DNA from: a virus
Lineage: Duplodnaviria > Heunggongvirae > Uroviricota > Caudoviricetes
Reading direction: 5' to 3' (one strand)
Virus record (IMG/VR): IMGVR_UViG_2651869755_000012
Length of the DNA stretch: 7,600 bases
Shown in pieces: positions 1,863-7,355 of the stretch (position 1 is its first letter; the number at the start of each line of letters is the position of its first letter). The translations under genes were made by a program, and so were the position numbers. Under the pieces are notes generated by a model. The model made no database searches. It had not been told where the DNA came from and saw nothing but the letters and a program-made list of their open reading frames with translations.

Positions 1863-1930
1863 GAGACCCGGCGGGGGAGTAATCTCCCGCCACCTCTGAT
1901 GTGCCAGGCATCCTCAACGCACCCGCACTT

Positions 1931-1951
1931 AACCCGCTTCGGCGGGTTTTT
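1931..1951 (+). terminator. Rho-independent terminator ending the hok transcript
   Basis: Hairpin CCCGC-TTCG-GCGGG (1933-1946) followed by TTTTT (1947-1951). Confidence 0.7.
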
Positions 1952-1962
1952 GCATTAGTCTG

Positions 1963-1992
1963 GTTGACAAAAATAGAAAAATGCGAAAATAT
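1963..1992 (+). promoter_or_regulatory. Putative promoter of the two-gene insert (consensus -35 TTGACA)
   Basis: Perfect TTGACA at 1963-1968; weak -10 candidate AAATAT at 1987-1992 (18-bp spacer) inside an A-rich tract; the first ATG of the module is at 2028. Confidence 0.4.
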
Positions 1993-2027
1993 GTGGTTTA
2001 CGAATTCTAAAAAAAGCGAAACTTGAA

Positions 2028-2678
2028 ATGAATGAAAATCAGTTAGCTCCTTGTTGGGAATTTCAACCTTATCTTGCTGAAAACTATGTTCGCCACTTGT
2101 TGGCGGAGATCGCTAACGTACTTGAGCAGCTGTACTATCATAAGCACGCATTAGACAGCAACTGGTCTGAAGGTGTAAGGGCTTATGATTGGGTCAGAAA
2201 TCATCTTATTCAAAATGAAGATGCAATTCCTGGCCTTGAGATGATTTCCAAGGGGTTGGACTATGTAGTTGCTTTAAATAAAGTTCCGCTACAATTTACC
2301 AAAGATTGCATTAATAACCCCAAAAAGAAACATCGTCTGCGTCGAAATAAAGTAGAGTATGAGCAGCTCTCATTGTTTGGTGATGTTGAGGCTGAGCAAG
2401 ATATTACATGGCGAGTCATAGCTGAGCCTTTTTTATCCGAAGAGGGCGATGGTGAATTAGAGTCCACACTGCCTCGTTGGGAGGTAGCTCTTGTTGGATT
2501 TAATACTTATGGTGCTCAGATTAGTATAGTTTCTCATCAATCTACAGCATCGATGCCGCTTATGCCTCTTGATTATAACACACTCCCTGACGAAGCGGAG
2601 ATTAATAAGGTGCCTCTTCGTCGGCGTACGAAGGATAAAGATTTGGATGTGAGCAGTGATGGAACATCAGGTGAATAA
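2028..2678 (+). CDS. Unknown-function protein (216 aa), first gene of a two-gene module with the downstream HTH-peptidase
   Basis: Long ORF in an AT-rich segment, ATG at 2028, stop TAA at 2676-2678 overlapping the next gene's start by 20 nt. Acidic protein with a basic patch (KKKHRLRRNK); no transmembrane segment or catalytic motif recognised. Confidence 0.6.
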   Translation: MNENQLAPCWEFQPYLAENYVRHLLAEIANVLEQLYYHKHALDSNWSEGVRAYDWVRNHLIQNEDAIPGLEMISKGLDYVVALNKVPLQFTKDCINNPKKKHRLRRNKVEYEQLSLFGDVEAEQDITWRVIAEPFLSEEGDGELESTLPRWEVALVGFNTYGAQISIVSHQSTASMPLMPLDYNTLPDEAEINKVPLRRRTKDKDLDVSSDGTSGE

Positions 2679-3762
2679 CTTCACTGAGTATCGGGGTGAT
2701 AAGCTCAAACTAGCGAGAATGGCTGTTGGGCTTTCTTGTGAAGAGTTAGCCGAAAAAATTGGCAAGACAAAGCAATTCGTTAGCAAACTGGAGAAGGGGT
2801 GCAGGCCATCGGAGCAATGTCTTGAGTTAATATCTTCAGCGCTTATGATTAAGTCCAGTTTTCTTTTTACTGAACGAAAATACGCTCTGGAAAGTGATGT
2901 CTGCCATTTTCGGAGTAAGAAGTCCAGGACTCAAACGCTGACTAATAGTGTATTGGCCAGGGCTGAGATTCTTAATATTATAATTTCTGCTGTTGAAGGT
3001 GAAATCGAATTTCCTGACGTTAACATACCGGAGCACCCAGGGGCTGAATTACTTACTCCGAATGATATTGAGCGAGTGGCAGAAGATTGTCGCCGTGCCT
3101 GGAATTTAGGTCTTGGCCCTATATCATCAATGGTTAAATTGGCGGAGAGTTTAGGGGTAATCGTTGCGCATGTTACGGGAGTCGATGATCGTGTTGATGC
3201 TTTTACTGTTCACAATAACAGGCCTGTTATCATCAGGAACAATGTTAAAAAAAGCATATGTAGATTTCGCTCTGATTTAGGTCATGAATTAGGGCATTTA
3301 GTAATGCATGAGGGCATAACGACAGGTGATAAACTTACGGAATCACAAGCCGATCACTTTTCGAGCGCCTTATTAGTTCCCAGGTTATCTTTCATTAAAG
3401 AATTTCCACGAATACGAGGTAAGCAATTCGACTGGAATGCTCTGGTTGAATTTAAACTTAGATGGAAAATCAGCCTTAAAATGTGTATTTATCGAGCCAG
3501 CGCATTAGGCTTATTGACCCAGGAACAGGCAAGAACTGGCTATATGCATCTTAATTCCAGAGGGTATACGAGAGTTGAACCTGGTGATGAACTTTTGCGC
3601 CCTGAAGAACCCGGCATGCTGGCCGAGGCGATTGAAATGCTGGATGATGCAACCTGGCTAAGAATTCTTATGAAAACTGGCTTGAGCCAAGATTTAATTC
3701 GTGAGTTGTTCTCCATCAACAGACCTATTACAAATCCAAGAAATATTTTCCAGATTGTTTGA
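2659..3762 (+). CDS. Fused XRE-family HTH / ImmA-IrrE (COG2856, M78-like) zinc metallopeptidase, 367 aa
   Basis: N-terminal XRE-type helix-turn-helix (LARMAVGLSCEELAEKIGKTKQFVSKLEKG) and a central HEXXH zinc site (HELGH at nt 3283-3297, within DLGHELGHLVMHEG), plus about 150 aa of C-terminal extension. ATG at 2659 (GTG at 2656 also possible); stop TGA 3760-3762. Confidence 0.8.
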   Translation: MEHQVNNFTEYRGDKLKLARMAVGLSCEELAEKIGKTKQFVSKLEKGCRPSEQCLELISSALMIKSSFLFTERKYALESDVCHFRSKKSRTQTLTNSVLARAEILNIIISAVEGEIEFPDVNIPEHPGAELLTPNDIERVAEDCRRAWNLGLGPISSMVKLAESLGVIVAHVTGVDDRVDAFTVHNNRPVIIRNNVKKSICRFRSDLGHELGHLVMHEGITTGDKLTESQADHFSSALLVPRLSFIKEFPRIRGKQFDWNALVEFKLRWKISLKMCIYRASALGLLTQEQARTGYMHLNSRGYTRVEPGDELLRPEEPGMLAEAIEMLDDATWLRILMKTGLSQDLIRELFSINRPITNPRNIFQIV

Positions 3763-3766
3763 GTAT

Positions 3767-3787
3767 ACCCGCTTCGGCGGGTTTTTT
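3767..3787 (+). terminator. Rho-independent terminator after the two-gene module (same hairpin as at 1932-1951)
   Basis: CCCGC-TTCG-GCGGG (3768-3781) followed by TTTTTT (3782-3787); the 20-mer ACCCGCTTCGGCGGGTTTTT is identical to 1932-1951. Confidence 0.7.
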
Positions 3788-3806
3788 GTTTTTATTTTCA
3801 ACGTGT

Positions 3807-3836
3807 TTGAAGTTTTGGACGGTGCCAGAATAGAAT
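3807..3836 (+). promoter_or_regulatory. Putative sigma70 promoter (TTGAAG -18- TAGAAT)
   Basis: TTGAAG at 3807-3812, 18-bp spacer, TAGAAT at 3831-3836, upstream of the ORF starting at 3872. Confidence 0.4.
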
Positions 3837-3871
3837 CAAAAATACTTAAGTAGCGCGCAGGGAGAAGAGGG

Positions 3872-4093
3872 ATGGACCCCGAACAGGGGGAGTGCTATTT
3901 ATCTGGAAGGATTCTGTTGATGAAAATCGAAGAATTACGTGAAATTTTTAGTGAAGATGGCCTCTATGCTGTGCGCGTTGAGAATGGGGGTATTACCTAC
4001 ACAGCGTTAATTCCTGATGATCATGTAGTGTTATCTGTTGAGGCATTCATTGAATACTTGGAAAGACTCGGTTTCAAGGTAGTTCGGGAATAA
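3872..4093 (+). CDS. Small hypothetical phage protein (73 aa; alternative start ATG 3920 gives 57 aa)
   Basis: ORF with GGAG at 3861-3864 ahead of ATG 3872; the internal in-frame ATG at 3920 has GGAAGGA at 3904-3910. No motif recognised. Confidence 0.45.
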   Translation: MDPEQGECYLSGRILLMKIEELREIFSEDGLYAVRVENGGITYTALIPDDHVVLSVEAFIEYLERLGFKVVRE

Positions 4094-6578: not shown

Positions 6579-6605
6579 AACCCGCTCAAATGTGCGGGTT
6601 TTTTG
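6579..6605 (+). terminator. Rho-independent terminator (tR'-like) downstream of the Q-like gene
   Basis: CCCGC (6581-6585), 8-nt loop, GCGGG (6594-6598), then TTTTTT (6599-6604). An AT-rich promoter-like stretch at 6532-6580 precedes it, with a TATAAA-like hexamer at 6575-6580 (promoter not confidently resolved). Confidence 0.6.
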
Positions 6606-6677
6606 CTTAACTCTGTGGACCTTTTTATCTGTAGTTGTAATATATGGATATTGTTACAATTTAGGTCGGTGAGCTTA

Positions 6678-7355
6678 ATGGAAGAACAGCACGGTAATTA
6701 CTTTATAAAACGAATTCAGTTGATTGGAAGAGGGGCATTTGGCTTTGTTGAACACGTTAAGGTTTACAACCTCAATAAAGGTGAATGCGGGGATTATGCT
6801 AGAAAGGTTTTAGCACCCGAAAAACCAGAGCTTTTGGCGCAAATAGAGCAGTTTAGAAGGCGTTTTAAAAGGGAGGTTGTGTATCAATCACATTGCGTAC
6901 ATAGCAATATTGTTCCTATTTATTTGTGCGATTTGTTTGTTGAGAATCCATGGTTCATTATGGATAAAGCAGAATGTGATCTTGAGCACGAAATAACGAA
7001 CAACCTTCTTACAACAGATCAAAAAATTTCAATAGTGAAAATGGTATTAGATGGTGTAGCTTACATCCATGCCAAAGGCTATTTACACAGAGATATAAAA
7101 CCCTTTAATGTTTTGCGATTTAGCGACGGAACATACAAGGTGTCTGATTTTGGTCTGGTAAAAGATACGAATCCCGAAGGGGATACCACTAAATTGACCG
7201 AGATCGGTACCCGTATGGGAAGTACAAGATATATGGCTCCCGAGATTTTATATAATGCAGAGTATTCAGTTAAGACTGATGTTTATGCTGTGGGACGGTT
7301 AATTGAAGACTTAAATTTAGATGATAAAAAAATAAAGCCTATCATAGCTAAGTGA
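6678..7355 (+). CDS. Eukaryotic-like Ser/Thr protein kinase (Hanks-type), probably C-terminally truncated by IS insertion
   Basis: Gly-rich loop IGRGAFG (6723-6743), catalytic loop HRDIKPFN (7086-7109), DFG (7146-7154) and APE (7236-7244). ATG 6678 follows GGTGAG at 6668-6673; the track's TTG 6603 start lies inside the terminator. Only about 35 aa follow APE, and the stop TGA 7353-7355 is the first 3 bases of the IS terminal repeat. Confidence 0.75.
   Translation: MEEQHGNYFIKRIQLIGRGAFGFVEHVKVYNLNKGECGDYARKVLAPEKPELLAQIEQFRRRFKREVVYQSHCVHSNIVPIYLCDLFVENPWFIMDKAECDLEHEITNNLLTTDQKISIVKMVLDGVAYIHAKGYLHRDIKPFNVLRFSDGTYKVSDFGLVKDTNPEGDTTKLTEIGTRMGSTRYMAPEILYNAEYSVKTDVYAVGRLIEDLNLDDKKIKPIIAK

Follow-up and report, generated by a model that had tools for sequence, protein, structure and literature searches.

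The 216-residue product of the gene at positions 2028 to 2678 is probably the RmrT protein of a RosmerTA type II toxin-antitoxin and anti-phage module, which an Escherichia coli lambdoid prophage carries in its nin region as an accessory ('moron') cassette. The window, that is, the whole stretch of viral DNA analyzed here, is 7,600 nucleotides long and represents the nin region of such a prophage. Within it, the gene immediately precedes and overlaps rmrA, which encodes a putative antitoxin consisting of an Xre-type helix-turn-helix (HTH) domain fused to a zinc peptidase of the M78/ImmA-IrrE family. RosmerTA is an already known system, described by Millman et al. as a Zn-peptidase antitoxin together with a toxin of unknown function (10.1101/2022.05.11.491447). 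An earlier note on the same DNA, made from its letters alone, had presented the 216-residue protein as the orphan partner of the peptidase and, should the module be RosmerTA-like, as a new type of toxin. The features on which the analysis draws are the following.

1931-1948: terminator-like hairpin and T-run after hok (promoter/terminator scan)
1961-2021, + strand: upstream control region, candidate promoter/operator (repeat search, sequence)
2028-2678, + strand: rmrT-type gene, 216 aa, WP_001004956.1 (open reading frame, PADLOC, phrog_5786, RefSeq coding sequence in E. coli 042, dN/dS)
2154-2540, + strand: predicted folded core, aa 43-171 (AlphaFold2 model)
2319-2351, + strand: basic patch PKKKHRLRRNK, aa 98-108 (sequence), on the loop and short helix that join strand 3 to the helix at 108-115
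2583-2636, + strand: conserved C-terminal linear motif, aa 186-203, LPDEAEINKVPLRRRTKD (tail re-alignment, shuffles, pLDDT)
2659-2678, + strand: 20-nt overlap of the end of rmrT with the start of rmrA (sequence, RefSeq coordinates)
2659-3762, + strand: rmrA, Xre-type HTH fused to M78/ImmA-IrrE Zn-peptidase, 367 aa, WP_000401168.1, putative antitoxin
3767-3782, + strand: terminator-like hairpin plus T-run at the end of the two-gene unit (promoter/terminator scan)

Sequence properties and family membership of the 216-residue protein

The open reading frame is a real gene. It starts with the ATG at 2028 and stops with the TAA at 2676-2678 of the + strand, its GC content at the three codon positions (0.57/0.34/0.35) follows the pattern of coding sequence, and comparison with a 95%-identical E. 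coli allele gives a dN/dS of 0.21 (17 synonymous and 14 non-synonymous differences). The downstream rmrA gene is more constrained, with a dN/dS of 0.03. Sequence motifs of RmrT are kept among relatives down to approximately 20% identity. The RefSeq entry for the protein, WP_001004956.1, is annotated "hypothetical protein".

In its general properties the protein is as the earlier note had described it, acidic and devoid of both a transmembrane segment and a P-loop. It has a pI of 4.9 and a net charge of -13 (35 Asp/Glu versus 22 Lys/Arg residues), a GRAVY of -0.54, and a maximum 19-residue Kyte-Doolittle mean of 0.84, so that a transmembrane segment is not expected; the P-loop motif GxxxxGK[ST] is absent from the sequence. 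The one basic patch that had been remarked upon is likewise present, as KKKHRLRRNK at aa 99-108, and is partly maintained in the family, with P98 found in 53 of 62 aligned sequences and Lys or Arg at position 101 in 43 of them.

The further statement that the protein bears no recognizable motif holds for the general domain collections but not for those devoted to defense systems and phage proteins. Scans of RmrT against Pfam and NCBIfam return nothing above noise, and Pfam scans of all 62 aligned relatives give neither a credible match nor an HTH. The PADLOC RmrT model PDLC03929, however, matches the protein at E 4.6e-25, aligning residues 7-209 with profile positions 5-195 of 198, and phrog_5786 covers it end to end at E 8.1e-85. 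At 86 bits, the PDLC03929 match scores moderately, since members of the Enterobacterales clade share no more than about 20-28% identity with the bulk of the family.

When 1.84 billion representatives were searched with a profile, 69 relatives came up at E <= 1e-3, nearly all about 200 residues long; 62 of them constitute the family alignment used throughout this work, and all 62 match PDLC03929 (best E 3e-72). A word-indexed search found just 21 close clusters, Enterobacterales throughout, and a locus search of species representatives with the close alignment returned only E. albertii and Xenorhabdus. The named members of the family come from Escherichia, Enterobacter, Buttiauxella, Serratia, Xenorhabdus, Aeromonas, Vibrio and Photobacterium, with Belnapia forming one divergent branch, and every one of them is labeled "hypothetical protein". 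Among 50,697 phage records (the isolated phage genomes of INPHARED), tblastn did not match RmrT, and megablast of the module against phages gave matches confined to the flanks. A search of the literature yielded no paper on WP_001004956, and searches on RmrT, RosmerTA and COG2856 brought up neither a mechanistic study nor an experiment dealing with the PDLC03929-type toxin family, which is catalogued through genomic association.

On the strength of these profile matches, the 216-residue protein very probably belongs to the catalogued RmrT family PDLC03929/phrog_5786, paired with an RmrA of the PDLC03943 type. The proposal that it is an orphan representing a new RosmerTA toxin type could appeal to its want of a Pfam or NCBIfam family and to its lack of similarity to the verified RmrT of E. 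coli OLC-716. With an existing RmrT model covering both the protein and its 62 aligned relatives, a PHROG family to which it belongs, and 69 related representatives, that proposal retains next to no probability; it fails because current defense-system catalogues already cover the module. Homology to a characterized non-defense family was also looked for, and none was found with confidence.

Pairing with rmrA and the prophage setting

RmrA contains the Pfam domains HTH_3 (E 5e-7) and Peptidase_M78 (E 6e-11), and matches the PADLOC RmrA model PDLC03943 over nearly its full length at E 6.2e-105; the PADLOC capP model matches at E 1.6e-14. Its HEXXH motif is intact (HELGH, aa 209-213, nt 3283-3297), and the motif ESQADHFSSALLVP is located at aa 228. 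The 20-nt overlap between the two genes suggests translational coupling, and overlaps of 8-50 nt are found at the corresponding junction of five related loci.

The association of the two genes extends far beyond this prophage. Among eight distant relatives whose loci were looked up, approximately 17-28% identical to RmrT, seven lie directly upstream of a gene encoding a 340-383-residue HTH and M78 protein, often overlapping it, in contexts as varied as chromosomal sites, a Tn7-like element carrying TniB/TniQ, and prophages that also encode RecT/YqaJ/ERF and an integrase. All seven of these HTH-M78 partners find their best match in PDLC03943, by wide margins, and therefore the toxin family and the antitoxin subfamily travel together. 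The pairing is kept from the Enterobacterales to Aeromonas, Vibrio and Photobacterium, and each of the two genes, rmrT and rmrA, is present in 237 of 5426 complete E. coli genomes. The match of RmrA to its model, the pairing in distant relatives, and the equal genome counts bear out the suggestion of the earlier note that this is a RosmerTA-like pair.

Two of the related loci are of separate interest. At one (L007 1-5705), the related pair is cargo beside Tn7-like genes encoding a Mu-transposase C-terminal domain, TniB and TniQ. At the other, in Belnapia rosea (L010 4001-6797), the most divergent member of the family (P0086) is followed by a 690-residue GajB-like UvrD helicase (PADLOC GajB, E 8.6e-82), which stands in place of the HTH-M78 gene, and transposase and resolvase genes adjoin; Belnapia genomes hold several paralogues of the RmrT family. 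The helicase neighbor offers a weak hint of a possible partner swap that would link the RmrT fold to DNA transactions.

The pair closely resembles RosmerTA as defined by Millman et al. in 2022, with two co-oriented genes, the toxin gene first, an Xre-HTH and M78 antitoxin of about 370 residues, and carriage on mobile elements. The verified pair of E. coli OLC-716, whose RmrT is the only one from E. coli to have been examined by experiment and the sequences of which are given in Table S2 of the supplement to that work (10.1101/2022.05.11.491447), shares this architecture and the host species, and its RmrA is homologous to that of the window (29% identity, E 2e-35). The toxins, in contrast, have no sequence relation to one another (BLASTP E 7): the OLC-716 RmrT matches PADLOC models PDLC03935/03932, whereas the RmrT of the window matches PDLC03929, and hhalign of the two family alignments gives a probability of 0.6%.

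Within the nin region, the gene order is DUF977, QueH, hok/sok, rmrT, rmrA (HTH and Peptidase_M78), a small phrog_340 open reading frame, DUF968, RusA, antiterminator Q and a Ser/Thr kinase, and over nt 1900-3900 the sequence shows 100% identity with that of E. coli 042 and of numerous further strains. The GC content of the segment 1951-4100 is 41.6%, compared with 49% and 52% in its flanks (52% in the DUF968-RusA-Q block), and this low value fits an inserted accessory cassette. The terminator-like hairpins at 1931-1948 and 3767-3782 bracket rmrT and rmrA as a unit. The hairpin after hok, AACCCGCTTCGGCGGGTT, differs little from the one after rmrA, ACCCGCTTCGGCGGGT, and this near identity suggests that the cassette was inserted between repeated terminator elements.

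The upstream control region contains a 28-nt direct repeat, with copies at 1961-1988 (TGGTTGACAAAAATAGAAAAATGCGAAA) and 1994-2021 (TGGTTTACGAATTCTAAAAAAAGCGAAA) that are 71% identical and 33 nt apart; it could be an operator for the HTH domain of RmrA, or it could have arisen by chance. An exact -35-like TTGACA is located at 1964-1969, within the first copy. A scan for consensus promoters called none upstream of rmrT. The region 1961-2021 is nearly identical in a diverged allele (L017).

Other genes of the window merit mention in their own right. A complete hok/sok type I toxin-antitoxin locus occupies positions 1537-1862, directly upstream of the RosmerTA pair, with sok at 1537-1712 (Rfam, 120 bits) and an adjoining Hok/Gef open reading frame named hokD in RefSeq, such that two addiction- or defense-type modules stand side by side. 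The gene at 6603-7355, in a low-GC block (approximately 37-40%), matches PADLOC mad6 at E 1e-40 and many PD-T4-6 models at E down to 4e-32, and is probably, as judged from these profiles, a second prophage-borne defense or exclusion gene. Finally, positions 783-1469 encode an epoxyqueuosine reductase QueH (Pfam E 1e-65) within the prophage early region; QueH is missing from the otherwise similar prophage of E. coli 042, which has other small genes in its place.

Natural disruptions and the polarity of the module

The natural disruptions of the module that were seen affect one gene only. In E. coli FDAARGOS_1249 (L013 1786-3345) an IS5 insertion interrupts rmrT, and in E. coli PS1Thumoskin9 (L014 1704-2009) rmrT bears an internal deletion; rmrA is intact in both cases, and the reverse situation was never seen in the E. 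coli genomes. These two rmrT-only disruptions fit toxin-antitoxin logic and argue against a reversed polarity, in which the HTH-peptidase would be toxic and the 216-residue protein its antidote. Such a reversal has a precedent in PD-lambda-2, where the Xre-peptidase component B is toxic and component A rescues (Vassallo et al., PMC9519451). A genome with a broken 216-residue gene and an intact peptidase gene would, however, be untenable if the peptidase were toxic. Furthermore, rmrA is essential or undeletable in other RosmerTA systems: Millman et al. could not obtain a delta-rmrA mutant (10.1101/2022.05.11.491447), and the gene is essential in three Pectobacteriaceae (10.64898/2025.12.09.693261). 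Neither RmrT nor RmrA matches the PADLOC PD-lambda-2 models. With the natural rmrT disruptions speaking against it, the reversed polarity is judged very improbable. Frameshifted or truncated copies of RmrT, five in all, are also found in Salmonella, Plesiomonas and E. coli.

A different possibility is that the 216-residue protein is not toxic at all and serves as a sensor or adaptor for a phage product, controlling an HTH-peptidase that in turn regulates other genes. RmrT has no recognizable catalytic motif, the canonical nuclease residues are lost, and Makarova et al. proposed COG2856-Xre fusions as possible regulators in more complex circuits (PMC2701414), all of which would suit such a role. 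Against it stand the strict two-gene unit found in prophage, Tn7-like element and chromosome with no conserved third gene, the asymmetry of the disruptions, which fits a toxin, and the essentiality of related RosmerTA antitoxins. We regard the sensor or adaptor role as quite improbable.

On balance, we favor RmrT as the toxic effector of the module. It would be a soluble, cytoplasmic protein, held inactive by RmrA and freed upon phage infection. The rmrT and rmrA genes overlap and appear to be co-transcribed. Protection against phage by RosmerTA has been demonstrated for other RmrT families (10.1101/2022.05.11.491447; PMC10440598).

Predicted fold, C-terminal tail and control by RmrA

The earlier note had proposed structure prediction and fold comparison as a check, and the two parts of that proposal had different outcomes. 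A first AlphaFold2 model, built on 13 close sequences, was poor (pLDDT 62) and was replaced by one built on the 62-sequence alignment, which reaches a pLDDT of 84.8 and a pTM of 0.75. Comparison of this model with the PDB by Foldseek gave no significant match, and a profile search against PDB sequences produced a chance match alone (E 0.16). The model depicts a soluble alpha/beta protein with two long helices and a three-strand meander. Its predicted core contains a helix (45-62) followed by the three strands of the meander (70-74, 80-83 and 86-92); helices then span 101-115, and three more strands occupy 127-135, 150-158 and 164-171. In the model, the core elements follow the order alpha-beta-beta-beta-alpha-beta, which may be a restriction-endonuclease-like arrangement.

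The best conserved polar residues of the family, all carried by this core, are D43 (56 of 62 sequences), E110 (57), Q113 (50) and R129 (55), and position 133 is Glu in 43 sequences and Asp in 11. Positions 89 and 92 go with them, position 89 being Arg in 38, Gln in 16 and Lys in 6 of the 62 sequences, and position 92 Lys in 24 and Arg in 21. The predicted core order may correspond to that of the PD-(D/E)xK superfamily, which includes NaeI, Cas4, Hjc and RecU, but the catalytic D...(D/E)xK signature of that superfamily is not conserved in RmrT: the canonical Asp before strand 2 (D78) is Asp in only 23 of 62 sequences, and on strand 3 the family has Arg, Gln or Lys at the (D/E)xK position. A canonical PD-(D/E)xK nuclease was rejected because D78 is conserved too poorly, and neither a Cfr10I-like D...K...E variant nor an EndA-like Tyr/His/Lys site is supported, D78 and Y53 being too poorly conserved.

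From the model, we give an endonuclease-like fold of the RmrT core an even chance of being correct, and consider actual nuclease activity doubtful. The scaffold may be endonuclease-like with an active site that has diverged or been lost. In the mechanism that we propose, the core would adopt a PD-(D/E)xK-like fold lacking the canonical catalytic motif and would act on or bind nucleic acid via a divergent site made up of D43, E110, E133, R/Q89, K/R92 and R129. Nuclease toxins, e.g. PIN and RelE, are common partners of COG2856-Xre fusions (PMC2701414). An endonuclease-like fold without the canonical motif would make action on nucleic acid most likely, rather than action on the membrane as for the RmrT of Gordonia phage Kita. 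The Kita pair, RmrT(D5)/RmrA, is similarly a phage-borne RosmerTA pair, and its toxin is likewise without an annotated domain; it differs in that Kita RmrT has predicted transmembrane regions and depolarizes the membrane (Ernits et al. 2023, PMC10440598), whereas the RmrT of the window has no hydrophobic segment.

The carboxy terminus of RmrT had been taken in the earlier note for a charged and probably disordered tail. The end of the protein, RRRTKDKDLDVSSDGTSGE (aa 198-216), is indeed charged and approximately the last 16 residues look disordered, but aa 181-200 are modeled with a pLDDT of about 82 and carry a motif conserved in the family. Re-alignment of the C-terminal 60 residues across all 62 members reveals this motif as a hydrophobic, an acidic and a second hydrophobic residue, two further residues, a proline, a hydrophobic residue and a basic cluster, the version in the window being AEINKVPLRRR. 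Of the 62 tails, 21 show the combined pattern, whereas shuffles that preserve composition show it 1.1 times on average; the significance of this enrichment is overstated, as the sequences share ancestry and the pattern was picked with the data already in view. We infer that RmrA or ClpX may dock on or cleave the protein at this motif, and in the proposed mechanism control of the toxin by RmrA (or ClpXP) would likely be exerted there.

This control could be exercised by proteolysis rather than by simple sequestration, RmrT being mainly a substrate or pseudosubstrate whose tail is cleaved or gripped by RmrA at about VPL/RRR, after which ClpXP would remove the toxin; such a scheme is compatible with a toxic RmrT. 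Maintenance of the tail motif in a family just ~20% identical, and an intact HEXXH in RmrA, are in keeping with it. The M78 peptidase IrrE cleaves DdrO in a basic loop at IEL/RGKR (PMC6868357), and the VPL/RRR junction of RmrT, also a hydrophobic-Arg junction in a basic stretch, resembles that site; the likeness of this junction, conserved as hydrophobic-Arg/Lys, gives a weak hint in support of the idea that RmrT is a peptidase substrate. The Clp protease has also been tied to modules of this type. In E. coli E101, clpP is essential owing to a prophage toxin-antitoxin pair (10.1101/2020.05.25.114553) regarded by Millman et al. as a precedent for the configuration of RosmerTA (10.1101/2022.05.11.491447), and among the Pectobacteriaceae only the RosmerTA-positive strains require clpX for viability (10.64898/2025.12.09.693261). 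These ClpXP links, however, come from other RmrT families or from modules whose family is not named, and the tail motif was defined post hoc. In addition, although RmrA shares its M78/COG2856 peptidase family with IrrE/DdrO, ImmA/ImmR and CapP/CapH, the partner in those systems is a separately encoded small HTH repressor, and the known M78 substrates DdrO, ImmR and CapH are all HTH repressors; in the window, by contrast, RmrA has the HTH and the peptidase in one chain, and it is partnered by a 216-residue protein that has no HTH. We hold it unlikely that RmrT is mainly a substrate of this kind. The fuller combination, in which RmrT is an endonuclease-fold effector minus the canonical site and its tail motif (hydrophobic-E-hydrophobic-xx-P-x-hydrophobic ... 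RR) is bound or cut by the M78 peptidase of RmrA, is somewhat less likely still.

The immediate gain is a routine one of annotation, in that a "hypothetical protein" of 237 complete E. coli genomes now receives a name, as RmrT of a RosmerTA defense module. The module belongs to a small prophage defense cluster made up of hok/sok, RosmerTA and the Ser/Thr kinase. Its remaining value is mechanistic, and lies in the activity of the soluble RmrT toxins and in the reason for an antitoxin with a protease domain; the confident model, the conserved residues, the tail motif and the natural helicase-linked variant provide handles on both. If the tail motif is indeed bound or cut by RmrA, RosmerTA antitoxins would neutralize the toxins not by sequestration but by proteolysis or by exposing a degron, ClpXP completing the process, and such proteolytic neutralization would explain why clpX or clpP is essential in RosmerTA-positive strains.
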